Assembly (NCBI GenBank): GCA_041653055.1
Contig: JBAZGD010000004.1
Location: forward strand, 1-60,685
Direction: 5' to 3'
Origin: Candidatus Omnitrophota bacterium
GTDB taxonomy: Bacteria > Omnitrophota > Gorgyraeia > Gygaellales > Profunditerraquicolaceae
DNA: 60,685 bases
The notes under the pieces are model-generated. The model was not told the DNA's origin, did no database searches, and was given only the letters and a program-made list of their open reading frames with translations. The translations under genes and the position numbers were made by a program. Below, piece after piece: positions 27,183 to 33,903 of the stretch; within the stretch, counting starts at the first letter, position 1; the number at the start of each line of letters is the position of its first letter.

Positions 27183-29390
27183 ATGGAGAAGAGAGTATTA
27201 TATAAGTCTATATTTATTGTCTGCATTATCGGTTTGTGCGCATATTTTGCTTTTCCTTTTGAGAAGAGGATAAATTTAGGCTTGGATCTGCAGGGCGGTA
27301 TGCAGCTTTTACTTAAGGTGGATACCGGTAATTTGCCCGAGGATGCCCGTGAAGGGGTTACGGATTTAGCTATTGAGAAACTGAGAAACAGGATTGATGA
27401 CCTTGGGGTAAGCGAGCCTTCCATACAGAGGCACGGGATTGATGAAATACTTGTGCAGTTACCCGGAGTTACCGACAGGGAGCGGGCGTTAAGTAAACTG
27501 GGGCAGACCGGGTTATTAGAATTTAAACTGGTGTCTGTTGATACGGAGAAATTCAGGGCGGCTTTAAGCGGTGATGTCCCCCAGGGATACGAGATCAGAT
27601 ACACCAAAGATGATTCTGAGCCCCTGCTTCTTGAGAGTGAGGCGGTTTTGACCGGAGACGCCTTAAGCGATGCTATGGTCAGTTTCAGCCAGGCTGATTT
27701 CGGCGGACAGGTTGTTTCCCTGCGTTTTAATAGCGAGGGGGCAAAAAAGTTTGCGCAGGTTACCGCGGCTAATATAGGCAGGAGGCTGGCGATTGTCCTT
27801 GACGGAAAGGTGCAGTCTGCCCCGAATATAAAAGAGGCGATTCCCTCGGGAGAGGCGGTTATCAGCGGGCGCTTTACAGTTGACCAGGCGCAGGATTTAG
27901 CAAAGATACTTAAGCACGGTAAATTACCCGCAGCGATTATAGTAGAAGAGGAGCGTACTATTGGCCCTCTGCTGGGGAAAGACTCGATTGCCAAGGGTAT
28001 CAATGCTACGCTTGTAGGTATTACCCTGGTATTGGTGTTTATGGCAATTTACTATCTGCTCGCCGGGGTTATTGCCAATATAGCATTAGTCTTAAACTTG
28101 CTGATGATCTTGGGTTGTTTAGGGATGCTGCCGTATTTATTCGGGGCCTCAGTAGCTACCCTGACCTTGCCCGGTATCGCAGGCGTAATTCTATCCCTGG
28201 GTATGGCTGTTGATGCGAATGTCCTGATTAATGAGCGGATCCGCGAGGAGCTTTCTTTGGGAAAGACTTTGCGCAGCGCCATAGCTAACGGTTATTCCAG
28301 GGCATTTACCGCAATTATTGATTCTAATATCACCACTCTCTTTGCCGCGGTTATACTTATCTCTATCGGCACGGGGGCAATTAAGGGTTTCGGGGTTACT
28401 TTAACCATAGGTATCATAGCAAGCATGTTTACGGCGATAGTGGTGACTCGCACCATCCTTGAGCTACTTCTTCATTTCGGGTTAATCAGGAATTCTCTTC
28501 CCATGTTAAAGCTTATCGGAGAGACAAAATTTGATTTTATAAAGAGGCGCAGGATATTTTATTTTATTTCTTTAGCGGTAATTATTACGGGTTTGTTCTT
28601 TTATTTTAAGAAGGGCAAGGATATTTACGGTATTGATTTTGCCGGCGGACAAATGCAGGAGTATAGTTTTAAAGAGGCGCCTGATGTTGAGCAGGTGCGC
28701 ACGGTGCTTAATGAGGTGGGGTTGGGTGGCGCGATTATCCAGCAGTTTAAGGACAATCCTAAGGTAGTTTTGATTAGGACATCCGAGGATAAGTCTGATG
28801 AGCTGCTTTTAAAGCTTAAGGAGGCCTTTGCAGGGAATGAAATTGACGTCTTAAGGATTGAGCGCGTCGGGCCTGTTGCCGGTAAGCATTTAAAGGATAA
28901 GGCGCTCTGGGCATTGACCTGGGCGTTGATTATCATATTAATTTATGTGGCTTTCAGGTTCAAGCATTTCAATTTTGCCTTTGCCGGTGTGGTAGCCCTG
29001 ATACACGATGTCTTGGTGGCCTTCATATTCTTGATTATAACCGGCAGGCCGATTGACCTTTTGAGTATTACCGCCTTTCTTACCATAGCCGGTTATTCTA
29101 TCAATGATACAATCGTAATTTATGACCGGGTAAGGGAGAATATGCGTGTTAACCGTAAGCTGAGCCTCTATGAGCTTATAAATTTAAGCGTTAATCAAAC
29201 CCTGGCCAGGACTATCCTGACTACCGGCCTTACCTTGCTGGTAGTGATTTCGATATTTATCTACGGGGGGGAAGTCTTGAACAACTTTGCTTTTACCTTG
29301 CTGGTAGGTTTTATATCCGGGATATACTCTACGGTTTATATCGCCTCGCCTTTAGTGCTTGCCTTTGGCCGCCATAAGGCAAAGGCCTGA
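27183..29390 (+). CDS. secDF: Fused protein translocase subunit SecDF
   Basis: LGLDLQGG, RNRID-x-LGV-x-EP, GMAVDANVLINERIREE, GIDFAGG, GYSINDTIVIYDRVRE. Confidence 0.97.
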   Translation: MEKRVLYKSIFIVCIIGLCAYFAFPFEKRINLGLDLQGGMQLLLKVDTGNLPEDAREGVTDLAIEKLRNRIDDLGVSEPSIQRHGIDEILVQLPGVTDRERALSKLGQTGLLEFKLVSVDTEKFRAALSGDVPQGYEIRYTKDDSEPLLLESEAVLTGDALSDAMVSFSQADFGGQVVSLRFNSEGAKKFAQVTAANIGRRLAIVLDGKVQSAPNIKEAIPSGEAVISGRFTVDQAQDLAKILKHGKLPAAIIVEEERTIGPLLGKDSIAKGINATLVGITLVLVFMAIYYLLAGVIANIALVLNLLMILGCLGMLPYLFGASVATLTLPGIAGVILSLGMAVDANVLINERIREELSLGKTLRSAIANGYSRAFTAIIDSNITTLFAAVILISIGTGAIKGFGVTLTIGIIASMFTAIVVTRTILELLLHFGLIRNSLPMLKLIGETKFDFIKRRRIFYFISLAVIITGLFFYFKKGKDIYGIDFAGGQMQEYSFKEAPDVEQVRTVLNEVGLGGAIIQQFKDNPKVVLIRTSEDKSDELLLKLKEAFAGNEIDVLRIERVGPVAGKHLKDKALWALTWALIIILIYVAFRFKHFNFAFAGVVALIHDVLVAFIFLIITGRPIDLLSITAFLTIAGYSINDTIVIYDRVRENMRVNRKLSLYELINLSVNQTLARTILTTGLTLLVVISIFIYGGEVLNNFAFTLLVGFISGIYSTVYIASPLVLAFGRHKAKA

Positions 29391-29396
29391 TAGGCT

Positions 29397-31304
29397 ATGT
29401 TTAAATCCCTGAAAATATACTCAGGGTTGAATATTGATTCGGACCGGCTTCTCTCTGGCCTGGTAGATTTCGGGTATAAGAGGCAGGAGAGCGTATCAGA
29501 GGAAGGTGATTTCTCGCGCCGCGGGGGCGTGATTGACATATTCCCCAATTCTTTTGAGCTTCCCGTCCGCATTGAGCTGGAAAATGACTCCATAGTTTCA
29601 ATAAAAAGTTTTAACCCTAAGACTGCTCAGCTTCTCTGGGAACACCGTATTGTTATTATCCTCAGAAATAATAAGCATTCCTCTTTTAAAACCAATCCGA
29701 TTACCGAAGAATTTCCTTTATCAAGCTTTATAGACATAAAGCTGGGCGACTATGTTGTCCATAATCAGCATGGGGTGGGAAGGTTTTTGGGGTTAAACAG
29801 GATTAAGGTCAAGGATAAGTTCCGGGATCATCTGGTTATTGAATATGACCGTCAGGAAAAGCTCTATGTTCCGGTTGACTCGATGCATCTGGTGCAGAAA
29901 TACCTTAGTTTCCATATCCGCAGGCCTAAATTGCACCGTCTGGGGAATAAAGAATGGCAGAGGGTTAAGGCGAGGGCGCGCAAGGGAATACAGAAATTAG
30001 CCTGGGATTTATTATCCCTGCAGGCTATGCGCTCTAGCGCAAGGGGTTTTCTTTACCCGAAAGACTCAGATTGGCAGAATGCGTTTGAAGAGAGTTTTCC
30101 CTTTGAGGAGACCCCGGACCAATTAAAGGCAACCCTGGAGGTAAAAAAGGATATGGAATCAGGCAAGCTTATGGATAGGCTATTGTGCGGAGATGTGGGG
30201 TATGGCAAGACTGAGATAGCTATGCGCGCGGCATTCAAGACAGTTATGGGAGGAAGGCAGGTGGCCTACCTTGTCCCCACGACAATACTGGCACAGCAGC
30301 ACTATCAGAATTTTTCATCCCGTTTACAAGGCTACCCTTTTAATATCAGGCTTCTCTGCCGTTTCCGCAGCGCCTCAGCGCAGAAGGAGACAATTGAAGA
30401 GTTAAGAAACGGGAACGCGGATATTGTTATAGGAACCCATAGGCTTCTTTCTGATGATGTGGCATTTAAGGACCTGGGCCTGGTAATAATAGACGAGGAG
30501 CAGCGTTTCGGGGTTAAGGCAAAGGAGAGGCTGAAGAGTATAAAAACTAATACCAATGTGATCACGCTGACTGCTACTCCTATCCCGCGCACGCTTTATA
30601 TGAGCCTTATGGCAGCGCGGGAGCTTTCGGTGATTAACACCCCTCCGCAAAATAGGTTGCCTATAGAAACCGTTGTGGTAGAATATGACGAAGACCTCAT
30701 CCGGCAGGCAATATTAAAAGAGGTTAACCGGGGCGGACAGGTCTTTTTTTTGCATAATCGCATTGAAGACATTGAAGAGGTAGAGGCAAGGCTTAAAAGG
30801 ATTTTGCCTGGCAATGTCAGGATGGGGATAGGCCATGGGCAGATGCATCCGCATGAGCTGGAGAGCGTGATGCGGGCTTTCCTGAAAGGCGAAATAGATT
30901 GTTTTATTTCCACTATGATTATAGAGTCAGGCATTGATATCCCTAATGCCAATACTATAATCATAGACCAGGCGCAGATGTTCGGGTTATCGGATATGCA
31001 TCAGTTACGCGGCAGGGTAGGCAGGTTTAACCGTAAGGCCTATGCCTATTTTCTGATCCCTAACAATTTTCTTCTGGATAAAGACTCGCGCAGAAGGCTG
31101 GAGGCAATCTCAGAGTATACCCAATTAGGGTCCGGTTTTAATATCGCGATGGAGGATTTAGAGATTCGCGGCGCAGGTAATCTATTGGGGGTAGAACAGC
31201 ACGGGTTTATCGCTGCGGTGGGTTTTGATCTTTACTGCAGGTTATTAAGGGAGGCAATATTGGGCTTTAAAAAAGCGGGAGTCTTTAATGAAAATAACAA
31301 TTGA
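29397..31304 (+). CDS. mfd: Transcription-repair coupling factor, minimal 635-aa form
   Basis: D2-like RGGVIDIFP, RID GDYVVH-x-x-HGVG, GDVGYGKTE, DEEQRFG, TATPIPRTL, QLRGRVGR, TRG motif RGAGNLLG-x-EQHG. No C-terminal D7. Confidence 0.93.
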   Translation: MFKSLKIYSGLNIDSDRLLSGLVDFGYKRQESVSEEGDFSRRGGVIDIFPNSFELPVRIELENDSIVSIKSFNPKTAQLLWEHRIVIILRNNKHSSFKTNPITEEFPLSSFIDIKLGDYVVHNQHGVGRFLGLNRIKVKDKFRDHLVIEYDRQEKLYVPVDSMHLVQKYLSFHIRRPKLHRLGNKEWQRVKARARKGIQKLAWDLLSLQAMRSSARGFLYPKDSDWQNAFEESFPFEETPDQLKATLEVKKDMESGKLMDRLLCGDVGYGKTEIAMRAAFKTVMGGRQVAYLVPTTILAQQHYQNFSSRLQGYPFNIRLLCRFRSASAQKETIEELRNGNADIVIGTHRLLSDDVAFKDLGLVIIDEEQRFGVKAKERLKSIKTNTNVITLTATPIPRTLYMSLMAARELSVINTPPQNRLPIETVVVEYDEDLIRQAILKEVNRGGQVFFLHNRIEDIEEVEARLKRILPGNVRMGIGHGQMHPHELESVMRAFLKGEIDCFISTMIIESGIDIPNANTIIIDQAQMFGLSDMHQLRGRVGRFNRKAYAYFLIPNNFLLDKDSRRRLEAISEYTQLGSGFNIAMEDLEIRGAGNLLGVEQHGFIAAVGFDLYCRLLREAILGFKKAGVFNENNN

Positions 31305-32220
31305 TGCAAAAATCCTGGTCCTGTTATCTATTTTAAACTTGATTGTTTTATCCGGCGGCGCTACTTTCTCTTACGCCCAGGATAAGATTATTGCCGTAGT
31401 TAACGAGGATGTGGTCACCCGGAAAGACCTTAATGATTTTTTAAGTTTTATGCGTTTGCAGCTATCTCAGGAGTATAAGGGCAAGGCGCTTGAGGAGAAG
31501 ATGCAATCAATGAAGCCTACTGCTTTAGCCAGGCTTATTGAAGACCGGCTTATCCTGCAGGAGGCTAAAAGAAGCGATATCAAGGTAGATGATGCGAGGG
31601 TAAGGTCGAGGATTAATGAAATAAAAAAAGAATACTCTTCCCAGGCGCAGTTTCACGCAGACCTTATGAAGCAGGGTTTAACGCAGGGTGACATTGAGAA
31701 GAAGATCAGGGAGCAGTTTATGATGTTCGCGGTTGTTGATTCTAAGGTGCGAAGCAAGATTACGATAAAGCCCGATGAGGTAACCGAATTTTATAAAGAG
31801 CATAAAAGAGAGCTCAATACCGGTGAGAGCCGCGATATCGAGGCCATATCCCTGGAGACTTATGATCTGGCTAATACTATATCCTATGAGCTTAAGTCAG
31901 GAAAGAATCTTGAAGATTTGGCTTCACGCTACCCGTTGATTATAAACAGGCTTACCCTAAAGGCCAAAGATGGCATAAGAAAAGAGATCGCCGAGGCAAT
32001 ATCCAATCTGGGTGTAAATGAGGCCTCTGATCCCGTGAAGATCGAGAATAAGTTTTATGTTTTCAGGGTTACCGGTATAAACCCTCCGGAGCAATTAATG
32101 CTAATACAGGCGCAGGGGATGATTCAGGGGATACTTTTTGAGAAAAGAATACAGGAAGGGCTTGCCGGGTGGCTGGATGAGATCAGGAAAAATTCCTATA
32201 TCAAGATTATGCAGGATTAG
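31288..32220 (+). CDS. SurA/PrsA-like periplasmic chaperone with degenerate parvulin domain
   Basis: Signal peptide, KIIAVVNEDVVT, LIEDRLILQEA, GV-x-x-x-SDPV, YIKI C-terminus; sits in the mfd-surA-pdxA-rsmA order. Confidence 0.85.
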   Translation: MKITIDAKILVLLSILNLIVLSGGATFSYAQDKIIAVVNEDVVTRKDLNDFLSFMRLQLSQEYKGKALEEKMQSMKPTALARLIEDRLILQEAKRSDIKVDDARVRSRINEIKKEYSSQAQFHADLMKQGLTQGDIEKKIREQFMMFAVVDSKVRSKITIKPDEVTEFYKEHKRELNTGESRDIEAISLETYDLANTISYELKSGKNLEDLASRYPLIINRLTLKAKDGIRKEIAEAISNLGVNEASDPVKIENKFYVFRVTGINPPEQLMLIQAQGMIQGILFEKRIQEGLAGWLDEIRKNSYIKIMQD

Positions 32221-33163
32221 GGCCGCGATTACTATGGGCGATCCTTCGGGGATAGGCCCGGCTATAACGGTTAAGGCGTTAAACAGATTAACCGGCATAG
32301 CTGATTTTTCTATTATAGGAGATGGCGCGGTATTAAATAAGATCCCCGGTTTCGGCAAGCTTTTAAGCAACGGGGTTAAGGTTATTGACTTAAAGAATGT
32401 GGATATTAAACGCTTTAAATTCGCAAGGATAAGCGGGGAATACGGGAGGGCTTCTATTGAGTATCTGGATAGGGCCCTTCAGTTGCTTAAAGAGAAAGAA
32501 ACTGACTGCCTGATTACTTGCCCTATTTCAAAAGAATCCATTAACCTGGGCGGTTTTAATTACAGCGGGCATACGGAATATTTTATCAAGAAAACAAAGC
32601 CGGGCCCCGTGGTAATGATGCTGCTTAATAAATATTTAAGATTCAGCCTGGTGACCCGGCATTTAAGCCTTAGGGAGGTACCCAATGCCCTAACCTTAAG
32701 GGGAATTTGTAAGACTGTCTTTATTACTTATAAGTGGCTTAATGATGTGCTGGGGATTAAAAACCCTCGGATTGTCCTCTGCGGTTTAAATCCCCATGCC
32801 TCGGATAACGGGTTGATCGGAAGCGAAGAGGTTAAGGTGATAAGGCCCGCGGCTAAAAGACTGCAAGGCAGAATCAAGGGCCTGTACGGGCCGTTGCCGG
32901 CGGATATCGCTATTCATAAGGCGCTTATGGGAGAGTATGATGCTGTCATTGCAATGTACCATGACCAGGCCTTAATCCCGCTTAAGATTACAGGAATGGA
33001 TAGCGGGGTAAACATTACCCTGGGGCTTGGATTTATAAGGACGTCGCCTTTGCACGGGACTGCCTTTGACCTTGCGGCAAACCCAAGTTGCGCCGACCCC
33101 GGTTCTCTTGTTTCCGCGATAAAACTGGCTTTAAAATGCGTATCAATCCAAAAAAAAGCCTAG
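32177..33163 (+). CDS. pdxA: 4-hydroxythreonine-4-phosphate dehydrogenase (start uncertain)
   Basis: ITMGDPSGIGP, GHTE, GLNPHA, MYHDQ-x-LIP, RTSP-x-HGTAFD. Confidence 0.95.
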   Translation: MRSGKIPISRLCRIRAAITMGDPSGIGPAITVKALNRLTGIADFSIIGDGAVLNKIPGFGKLLSNGVKVIDLKNVDIKRFKFARISGEYGRASIEYLDRALQLLKEKETDCLITCPISKESINLGGFNYSGHTEYFIKKTKPGPVVMMLLNKYLRFSLVTRHLSLREVPNALTLRGICKTVFITYKWLNDVLGIKNPRIVLCGLNPHASDNGLIGSEEVKVIRPAAKRLQGRIKGLYGPLPADIAIHKALMGEYDAVIAMYHDQALIPLKITGMDSGVNITLGLGFIRTSPLHGTAFDLAANPSCADPGSLVSAIKLALKCVSIQKKA

Positions 33164-33903
33164 GGCAGAATTTCCTAGCCGATAAGAATATTGTTAAGAA
33201 GATCATTGAGGCCTTAAGCCTTAGCCCCTCTGATACCGTTCTGGAGATAGGTTCCGGGAAAGGGGAGATTACCTCTTTGATTGCCTCCAGGGTATATAAA
33301 GTTTATGCCTTAGAATTGGATGCAAGGCTTAAGGATATCCTGGAAGAGCGGCTCAAAGGCTATGATAATGCCCGGGTAATTATTCAGGATATTTTAAAGC
33401 TTGATCTGGCCAAGCTCCTGGCGCCTAAAGAAAAAATCAAGGTATTCGGCAATATCCCTTATTATATCTCCAGCCCTATTATTGAATATCTTATCAGGCA
33501 TAGAGGGCGTATTGAGCGTGCCTTTATTACGGTTCAGAAAGAGTTTGCTAAAAGGGTAGTAGCTTCCCCGGGATCTAAGGATTATGGTTCGTTGAGTTTT
33601 TTTGTCCAGTATTATTGCCTTCCTGAAATTATATTCCATATAAATAGAGGTTGTTTTTATCCGGTGCCTAAGGTTGATTCCAGCCTGTTATCTTTGGCCT
33701 TCCGCGCGCAACCTGCGGTTTACGTAAAAGATGAAGAACTCTTGTTCAGGCTGATCCGCTCTGCCTTCAATCAGAGAAGGAAGACCTTAAGGAACAGCCT
33801 TAAGGGAATAGCTGAAACAGGGGAGATAGGGGCTTTTCTTAATCAAAGGCCGGAAGACCTTTCTCTTGAGGATTTCGCCAACCTTGCCAATAGAATTTCC
33901 TAA
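33136..33903 (+). CDS. rsmA: 16S rRNA m6,2A dimethyltransferase
   Basis: KKSLGQNFL, LEIGSGKG, NIPYYIS, F-x-P-x-PKVDS, QRRKTLRNSL. Start set at ATG 33136. Confidence 0.96.
   Translation: MRINPKKSLGQNFLADKNIVKKIIEALSLSPSDTVLEIGSGKGEITSLIASRVYKVYALELDARLKDILEERLKGYDNARVIIQDILKLDLAKLLAPKEKIKVFGNIPYYISSPIIEYLIRHRGRIERAFITVQKEFAKRVVASPGSKDYGSLSFFVQYYCLPEIIFHINRGCFYPVPKVDSSLLSLAFRAQPAVYVKDEELLFRLIRSAFNQRRKTLRNSLKGIAETGEIGAFLNQRPEDLSLEDFANLANRIS

Follow-up and report, generated by a model that had tools for sequence, protein, structure and literature searches.

A half-length Mfd that lacks the D2-D7 clamp is the normal form of the transcription-repair coupling factor in sampled Omnitrophota genomes

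A 635-aa protein encoded by a Candidatus Omnitrophota bacterium is probably the organism's only Mfd and a working transcription-repair coupling factor that has been cut down to its functional core. In bacteria, the motor protein Mfd removes stalled RNA polymerase and summons DNA repair. It serves as a model for the coupling of transcription to repair and has been proposed as an 'anti-evolution' drug target, and much of the recent structural work on it has dealt with the opening of its autoinhibitory clamp. The gene is contained in assembly GCA_041653055.1, a fragmented MAG of 41 contigs that is 86.6 % complete; the window, that is, the whole stretch of DNA analysed, comprises positions 1-60,685 of contig JBAZGD010000004.1 (60,685 nucleotides). 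In databases, the protein is labelled simply as a transcription-repair coupling factor, and a survey of the literature on Mfd in Omnitrophota, on Mfd domain architecture and on homologues without individual domains returned no paper describing the short form.

The mfd gene, identified by its ORF, the TIGR00580 model and Foldseek, occupies positions 29397..31304 of the forward strand, on which all features given below also lie. It starts with ATG and ends with a TGA stop codon at 31302-31304. An in-frame TAG is found two codons 5' of the ATG, and the stop codon of the upstream neighbour, a fused secDF (27183..29390; Pfam SecD_SecF_C, SecDF_P1_head), is located 6 nt before the mfd start, so close that an upstream extension of the ORF is impossible. 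Downstream, a surA-like chaperone/PPIase gene (31288..32220; Pfam SurA_N, Rotamase_2) shares 17 nt with the 3' end of mfd. These neighbours are conserved, with secDF 5' of mfd in 64 of 70 related loci and the surA-like gene 3' of it in 76 of 77. No Ns or gaps were found in the mfd ORF region, and neither a frameshift nor a gap was detected at either end. Read-through of the TGA, with an HMM alignment extending 17 codons beyond the stop, was rejected because the conserved surA-like gene already covers the extension and the orthologues end within a narrow range: all 83 finish 3-14 residues beyond the column of residue 625, the last residue aligned to E. coli Mfd, and the protein itself stops 10 residues past it.

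Pfam recognises four domains in the 635-aa protein, namely UvrB_inter (5-87), CarD_TRCF_RID (115-170), DEAD (241-400) and Helicase_C (437-545), and gives no match to TRCF/D7 (PF03461) even at E<=1. The protein scores 875.9 bits against TIGR00580, the mfd equivalog, above the cut-off of 800, and its best Foldseek matches are the Mfd structures 6AC8, 2EYQ and 6X26. With NF007966, the model of the E. coli-type full-length protein, it reaches 629 against a cut-off of 1329, in line with its half length. When the protein is aligned to E. coli Mfd, residues 8-89 fall on 131-212 (D2) and residues 105-625 on 468-987 (RID to the end of D6). D1a, D1b, D3 and D7 are thus absent, and the flanks offer no space for their remnants. 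Instead of the complete D1a-D2-D1b UvrB-homology module (BHM), only D2 is present, with 3 residues before it and about 20 residues between it and the RID.

The domains can be followed along the gene, with residue conservation counted over 83 short-form orthologues. D2, the UvrB-homology UvrA-binding domain (aa 4-90; 29406..29666), is matched by UvrB_inter at E 7.7e-18. It is followed by a tether (aa 91-114; 29667..29738) that stands in place of about 258 residues of E. coli D1b and D3; some 20 residues of it are predicted to be disordered (AF2 pLDDT <50 over 93-112), and in a comparison of regions, lower conservation is shown only by the 10-residue C-terminal tail (0.63). The RNA-polymerase-interacting domain, or RID (aa 115-170; 29739..29906), matches CarD_TRCF_RID (PF02559) at E 8e-19 (67.9 bits; cut-off 23). 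Within it, the position of I136, the counterpart of E. coli L499, is hydrophobic (I, V, L or M) in 80 of the 83 orthologues, the other 3 having Ala; the beta1 segment of RpoB, which reads IKE in E. coli, is TKE here and was counted in favour of the main explanation. The relay helix (aa 185-214; 29949..30038), helical in the AF2 model and containing W187, leads into the SF2 translocase D5 and D6 (aa 215-560; 30039..31076), which comprises the DEAD and Helicase_C matches, has an invariant Walker A GYGKT and DEEQ motif and is modelled with a pLDDT mostly >80. The TRG motif and hook helices (aa 561-626; 31077..31274), delimited by alignment to E. coli Mfd, retain R567, R591 and Q601 (E. coli R929, R953 and Q963) in 82-83 of 83 orthologues. 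A short C-terminal tail and the stop codon (31275..31304) occupy the site at which E. coli Mfd carries a linker and D7 (about 160 aa). The AF2 model of the whole protein has a pTM of 0.62, leaving the inter-domain arrangement uncertain, so that D2 may dock at a new site within the same molecule.

The initial annotation had proposed this order of modules, from D2 through RID and translocase to TRG without D1a, D1b, D3 or D7, and had seen no remnants in the flanks; the first point is borne out by Pfam, with exactly the four domains expected and no TRCF C-terminal domain, and by the E. coli Mfd alignment, and the second by the TAG, the secDF stop and the surA-like overlap, which leave no room. 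It had regarded the protein as an isolated example, whereas the survey of lengths that it called for identifies the short protein as the normal form across the phylum: a 630-660 aa Mfd is encoded in 289 of 301 sampled Omnitrophota genomes, and the gene is wholly lost in the remaining 12. Of the findings that it named as contrary to its reading, none appeared: no D7 hit within the protein, no gap or frameshift at either end and no full-length mfd in relatives. A separately encoded D7, which it had suggested looking for, was likewise absent from the source genome at E<=1 and over the cut-off in none of the 301 genomes (PF03461), and no relative examined carries a full-length mfd.

The short forms are monophyletic (support 0.94), and none of the short Mfd proteins encountered in the phylum has lost D2. 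Judging by their phylogeny, D1a, D1b, D3 and D7 were lost once, in an ancestor of the sampled Omnitrophota. In a wider search of a 1.84-billion-protein library, only 2 of the 150 best representatives at 50 % identity were short forms, and both, one of them from GCA_053991395.1, group with the Omnitrophota forms. A stand-alone D7 as a feature of the phylum was rejected: the lone match among relatives (G002:C69), a 185-aa ORF consisting of a TRCF domain, is probably foreign or chimeric, as it shows a sharp GC break (about 32 % vs 46-51 %) and adjoins second, divergent copies of gmk and dprA.

On the evidence of its sequence, D2 looks functional. R42, the counterpart of E. coli R165, is kept in 82 of 83 orthologues, and R58, the counterpart of R181, in all 83; G43 is conserved, and position 60 holds an acidic residue in most sequences. 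The domain is modelled with a pLDDT of 73-90, has a mean column conservation of 0.70, and is under strong purifying selection, with a dN/dS of 0.03 compared with 0.075 for the motor. In addition, D2 groups with the D2 of other Mfd proteins, and domain 2 of UvrB splits off with a support of 100/100, so that re-acquisition from UvrB was rejected and D2 is best described as a vertically retained Mfd D2 and no UvrB copy. Other positions have changed. At the third E. coli UvrA-contact position, F185, the Omnitrophota clade has Asp, Glu or Asn, which was counted against the main explanation; this position is Phe in only 91 of 148 full-length representatives. Q200, near-invariant in full-length Mfd (146/148), is Gly here and was likewise counted against it. 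Conversely, F53, W81 and H83 are clade-specific and invariant, as is a motif S-F-E-L-P ahead of R58 at positions that vary in full-length Mfd and UvrB. The replacement of F185 together with the invariant F53, W81 and H83 implies that the exposed surface of D2 is not simply that of E. coli. The lineage's own UvrB has lost the second Phe too, the Bacillus sequence VRVEFFGDE becoming VRISFSQEE. As for the partners, UvrB was found in the source genome and most sampled relatives, and UvrA in 16 of 16 near-complete relatives; uvrA was not found in the 86.6 % complete source assembly, but a same-genus relative with a 96 % identical Mfd carries it. In the E. coli ΔBHM construct, all three domains of the UvrB-homology module were reportedly taken out together, and this was counted against the main explanation, in which D2 would have to work without the D1a/D1b scaffold.

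Since D7 is missing, neither a D2-D7 clamp nor a D7 mask over the UvrA-binding face is possible. Removal of D7 derepresses the motor of E. coli Mfd (PMC1874598), and the resulting MfdΔD7 retains transcription-coupled repair in vitro and in vivo, for which the D2 surface is essential (PMC3025350), and the Mfd of Thermus thermophilus is derepressed by nature (PMC13453472). A second autoinhibitory node has been described in E. coli Mfd, the hook-relay contact W550-I970, of which W550 is regulatory, and a permanently active Mfd in a cell was thought unlikely in the discussion of the same work (PMC3488230). In the short form, W187 (E. coli W550) is invariant in 83 of 83 sequences, and position 608 (E. 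coli I970) is occupied by V (74 sequences), I (8) or M (1). The motor may therefore still be gated, as the W187-V608 pair is conserved. The suggestion in the initial annotation of a pre-activated Mfd with a permanently exposed UvrA site thus stands as far as the absent clamp and D7 mask are concerned, and is weakened by the conserved hook-relay node, the replaced F185 and the altered D2 surface; the 'pre-activated' state itself is extrapolated from the biochemistry of E. coli MfdΔD7 (PMC1874598, PMC3025350).

The proposed mechanism would proceed as follows. The RID would attach to a stalled RNA polymerase at its beta subunit, and the D5/D6 motor with the TRG motif would translocate on the upstream DNA and push the polymerase off. 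The N-terminal D2, on its flexible tether of about 20 residues, would then bring UvrA, with UvrB, to the vacated site. No N-terminal clamp would restrain the motor, and the UvrA-binding face of D2 would never be masked by D7; the control that remains would most likely consist of the conserved hook-relay helix contact and the requirement for RNA polymerase binding. The analysis shows the domain content of the short Mfd, the conservation of its catalytic and contact residues, its distribution across the phylum and single origin, purifying selection on D2, and the presence of UvrA and UvrB in the lineage; from these we infer that it displaces RNA polymerase and binds UvrA, and to what degree it is derepressed. 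A broader reading, put forward tentatively, is that a Mfd of only four modules (a leashed bare D2, the RID, the motor, and the TRG motif plus hook helices) serves transcription-coupled excision repair throughout the phylum. The D1a/D1b scaffold, D3, the D2-D7 clamp and its multi-step ATP-driven unmasking would be dispensable, control would have moved to the hook-relay switch, and the UvrA interface would have been remodelled jointly in Mfd D2 and UvrB, both without the second Phe of R-x-E-F-F. Were this true, the scaffold, D3 and the clamp would be shown to be dispensable in nature.

Three other explanations were weighed. That the ORF is an artefact or a pseudogene, truncated through misassembly, a frameshift or a split gene, could be suspected from its length, about half the canonical one, and from its origin in a 41-contig, 86.6 % complete MAG. 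This explanation is effectively refuted by identical boundaries in hundreds of independent assemblies, by the stop codons that tightly flank the ORF between conserved neighbours, by the lack of a D7 in the source genome and of any over the cut-off in the phylum, and by strongly purifying selection. It is also improbable that the protein is merely a translocase that clears RNA polymerase or counters backtracking, in transcription-replication conflicts or in regions that are hard to transcribe, with a vestigial D2. Natural Mfd variants without the repair-recruiting module are known (PMC3488230, PMC13453472), such as those of Buchnera and Wigglesworthia, which lack the UvrB-homology module; the present genome is also reduced, and mfd has disappeared from 12 of 301 Omnitrophota genomes. 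However, D2 is constrained like the motor, as its dN/dS and column conservation indicate, and persists in every short Mfd across the phylum, and the endosymbiont cases occur without UvrABC, whereas Omnitrophota retain UvrA and UvrB.

A somewhat stronger competitor, though still unlikely, is that D2 was repurposed after the loss of D7, D1 and D3. Through a new conserved surface, it would now mainly either brake the enzyme in a different manner, by binding to the motor or RID of the same protein, or receive some partner that is not UvrA, with coupling to repair weak or absent. The residues that are invariant in the clade and variable in full-length Mfd and UvrB (F53, W81, H83 and S-F-E-L-P) would fit such a change, as would the disappearance of F185 and the Mfd-specific Q200 and the doubts about a permanently active Mfd in a cell (PMC3488230). 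Set against it, the two arginines common to the UvrA-binding D2 domains of Mfd and UvrB vary in at most one sequence, G43 is conserved as well and position 60 is acidic in most sequences, UvrA is kept in the lineage, and the lineage's UvrB also lacks the second Phe. The parallel loss in UvrB suggests that the two partners co-evolved with a single UvrA surface and that UvrA was not abandoned.

Comparison with known systems places the short Mfd more precisely. With canonical Mfd/TRCF (E. coli, 1148 aa; PDB 2EYQ and the 6X26 series; TIGR00580), it has in common D2, the RID, the relay helix, D5/D6, the TRG motif and the hook helices, at an identity to full-length representatives of about 48-57 % over the D2 and RID-motor stretches. 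R165, R181, W550, R929, R953 and Q963 are kept, but F185 and Q200 are not; D1a, D1b, D3 and D7, about 513 residues altogether, are missing, and D2, an insertion within D1 in the canonical protein, here forms the N-terminus and hangs on a short tether. Like the engineered E. coli variants MfdΔD7 and Mfd D7-AAA, the short form has no D7 mask over D2; these variants show higher ATPase, RNAP-independent translocation and constitutive UvrA binding, and keep transcription-coupled repair (PMC1874598, PMC3025350). The laboratory constructs retain D1a, D1b and D3, which the Omnitrophota form lacks too, and the clade-specific D2 residues of the natural protein show long adaptation.

The surprise is limited, since E. 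coli can already carry out transcription-coupled repair with the engineered MfdΔD7. Nevertheless, the universality of the Mfd clamp is an open question (PMC13453472), and a phylum-wide Mfd without D1, D3 and D7 represents an evolutionary deletion experiment that defines the minimal modules kept by selection. Its composition suggests that the recruitment of repair may fall to D2 alone. Furthermore, the 635-aa protein is small and probably more tractable for studying translocation, RNA polymerase displacement and the hand-off to UvrA.

Among natural variants, the BHM-less Mfd of Buchnera, Wigglesworthia and the Arabidopsis chloroplast is also shortened, occurs in reduced genomes and keeps the hook-relay interface (PMC3488230, PMC13453472). 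It is the converse of the present case, having lost D1 and D2 and kept D7 in the absence of UvrABC, whereas Omnitrophota kept D2, UvrA and UvrB and lost D7. The Mfd of T. thermophilus (978 aa; PDB 6M6A, 13JQ) is reported to be unclamped and to translocate without RNA polymerase (PMC13453472), but it has all domains including D7 and its clamp is only dynamic, whereas in Omnitrophota the clamp is deleted. Finally, RecG has a homologous SF2 motor with a TRG motif and a comparable total length, and the RecG of this order shares 35-41 % motor identity with the short Mfd. It carries an N-terminal wedge domain and neither RID nor D2, both of which are present here; RecG models reach <=400 bits on the 635-aa protein with cut-offs of >=555, and the source genome has a separate recG, split over the ends of two contigs (C9 and C37).

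By its sequence boundaries, the short Mfd ORF (transcription-repair coupling factor, TRCF; 29397-31304, + strand, 635 aa, ATG start) is real and complete. An in-frame TAG lies two codons 5' of the ATG, the stop of a fused secDF gene falls 6 nt before it, and the TGA stop occupies 31302-31304, within a region free of Ns; a surA-like gene starts at 31288, inside the mfd 3' end. Pfam assigned UvrB_inter (residues 5-87), CarD_TRCF_RID (115-170), DEAD (241-400) and Helicase_C (437-545), and no match to the TRCF domain (D7, PF03461) was obtained in the protein even at E<=1. The NCBIfam mfd equivalog TIGR00580 scored 875.9 bits (cut-off 800); an identity as RecG was rejected, with RecG models scoring far under their own cut-offs.

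Using phmmer against PDB sequences, query residues 8-89 were found to match E. coli Mfd 131-212 (D2), and residues 105-625 to match 468-987, from the start of the RNAP-interacting domain (RID) to the end of D6, with no large gaps. Together with the Pfam results, this alignment bears out the domain architecture proposed in the initial annotation. The 513-residue length gap to the E. coli protein arises because D1a (E. coli 1-126, 126 residues) is reduced to 3 residues, D1b and D3 (214-471, 258 residues) to ~18, and the linker and D7 (988-1148, 161 residues) to 10. Walker A (GYGKT) and motif II (DEEQ; DEEH in E. coli) are invariant, and the TRG residues R567, R591 and Q601 (E. coli R929, R953 and Q963) are conserved in 82-83 of 83 sequences. 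In the RID, E. coli L499 corresponds to I136 (hydrophobic in 80/83, Ala in 3/83); W550 of the relay helix corresponds to W187 (83/83), and its hook partner I970 to V608 (V, I or M). In addition, an AlphaFold2 model built with 35 orthologues (mean pLDDT 76) folded D2 (pLDDT 73-90) and the motor with confidence, with pLDDT <50 for residues 93-112 between D2 and RID. Its top Foldseek matches were the Mfd structures 6AC8, 2EYQ and 6X26.

The short Mfd is a genuine, conserved variant of a familiar protein, spread over nearly the whole phylum Omnitrophota. What had been described as a single case is present in 289/301 genomes in the phylum survey, corresponding to 284/296 high-quality genomes and 207/218 genera, and PF03461 exceeded its cut-off in none of the 301. 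Within the same order (30 genera, 10 families), the short form (630-700 aa, spanning query residue 1 to ~627) occurred wherever the gene was neither cut by a contig end nor missing from the bin, as it was in 3/40 relatives. Across 83 distinct orthologues, the C-terminus lies 3-14 residues past the column of residue 625. An artefact is almost certainly not the explanation, since the ORF is bounded by stops, lacks Ns and recurs in this form throughout the survey. A library of 1.84 billion proteins was also searched; of its best 150 representatives at 50 % identity, just two were short (640 and 642 aa) and the remaining 148 had lengths of 987-1257 aa. The nearest full-length relative by score came from candidate division NPL-UPA2. 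In a RID-plus-motor tree, the short forms made up one clade (support 0.94) with no full-length proteins inside, a grouping that fits a single ancestral deletion. The 12/301 genomes without mfd, most of ~1-1.5 Mb, are spread over nine families (three in family f26, two in f54), so several independent complete losses may have occurred.

The window's own genome (0.96 Mb, 41 contigs, 86.6 % complete) carries a single mfd and a uvrB, and D7 was not found anywhere in it; its recG is divided over two contig ends (C9:5-1030 and C37:19-354). The sole D7 match over cut-off in the ~340 Omnitrophota genomes searched was a stand-alone 185-aa ORF (PF03461, 46 bits) on contig C69 of the same-genus genome G002 (locus L028:1252-1812), adjoining a rarA 83 % identical to that of the window's genome. 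This ORF is probably a foreign insertion or part of a chimeric contig, because GC falls to ~32 % on its side and gmk and dprA there are divergent.

The D2 surface is essential for transcription-coupled repair in E. coli (PMC3025350), and R165, R181 and F185 are important for UvrA binding (PMC3025350, PMC13453472). R165 is matched by R42 in 82/83 sequences and R181 by R58 in all 83; position 62, the counterpart of F185, is Asp, Glu or Asn in the Omnitrophota clade. The missing Phe does not appear to be strong evidence against UvrA binding, because this position is Phe in just 91/148 full-length representatives and Omnitrophota UvrB also lacks it (Bacillus VRVEFFGDE vs VRISFSQEE in the window's genome). 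The uvrB of the window's genome (G000:C11:5140-5670, L130) and 18 more Omnitrophota uvrB loci (L113-L132) were compared; the second Phe of the UvrA-contact motif R-V-E-F-F-G-D-E is gone from domain 2 and, in many cases, so is the Glu. Parallel loss in Mfd D2 and UvrB would be expected if both co-evolved with a single UvrA surface. UvrA was found in 16/16 near-complete relatives, including the same-genus one with a 96 % identical Mfd; no uvrA was found in the window's incomplete assembly, most likely an assembly gap rather than gene loss.

Re-acquisition of D2 from UvrB was ruled out by the D2 tree, in which the Omnitrophota D2 sits with Mfd D2, separated from the lineage's own UvrB domain 2 at 100/100 support; D2 has therefore been retained vertically. 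RNAP clearance alone, with D2 as a vestige, is improbable: D2 has a dN/dS of 0.03 against the relative with the 96 % identical Mfd (dS ~0.38), compared with 0.075 for the motor, and is constrained as strongly as the motor. Repurposing of D2 is a minor possibility. The domain has clade-specific invariant residues (F53, W81, H83 and an S-F-E-L-P motif before R58) and has lost the Gln of E. coli Q200, near-invariant in full-length Mfd (146/148); these features may stem from a loosening of constraint where D2 once touched D7 and D1, combined with a new surface. The reading considered likely is that of a TRCF that works without the clamp and is probably still controlled by RNAP binding and by the hook-relay contact. 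The hook-relay interface is fully conserved (W187, V608), and a permanently active Mfd was argued to be unlikely in cells (PMC3488230).

In this TRCF, the RID would bind RNA polymerase, the motor and TRG motif would drive it off DNA, and the tethered D2 would bring in UvrA. The protein is thus predicted to be equipped for polymerase removal as well as repair recruitment, the two halves of Mfd action. The RpoB beta1 segment that binds the RID (rpoB on contig C9, ORF from ~18888, + strand) reads TKE for E. coli IKE, keeping Lys and Glu with Ile replaced by Thr. A D2-D7 clamp cannot exist here. E. coli Mfd without D7 shows higher ATPase and RNAP-independent translocation (PMC1874598), and D7 deletion exposes the UvrA-binding site, with transcription-coupled repair persisting in vitro and in vivo (PMC3025350); T. 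thermophilus Mfd is reportedly derepressed by nature (PMC13453472). By analogy with these proteins, D2 would be free of any D7 mask. The mechanistic reading of the initial annotation is plausible. Its term "pre-activated" nevertheless overstates the case, because the hook-relay interface, a second autoinhibitory node derepressed by W550A in E. coli (PMC3488230), is conserved.

Buchnera, Wigglesworthia and chloroplasts also have naturally atypical Mfds, but these represent the converse, having lost the UvrB-homology module and kept D7 where UvrABC is absent (PMC3488230, PMC13453472). A literature search found no paper on the Omnitrophota form, and databases label the proteins just "transcription-repair coupling factor". 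The chief point it makes, namely that coupling can do without D7, had already been demonstrated by engineering the E. coli protein; the Omnitrophota form offers a clean natural minimal TRCF worthy of biochemical study.

The gene order secDF-mfd-surA is retained on the secDF side in 64/70 loci and on the surA side in 76/77. Furthermore, five genes (secDF-mfd-surA-like-pdxA-ksgA) are tightly packed at 27183-33903, with gaps of at most 6 nt and overlaps of up to 76 nt. For pdxA (32138) and ksgA (33088), the TTG starts as listed overlap the preceding genes by ~80 nt and are probably too far upstream; the Pfam match of pdxA starts only at residue 78.
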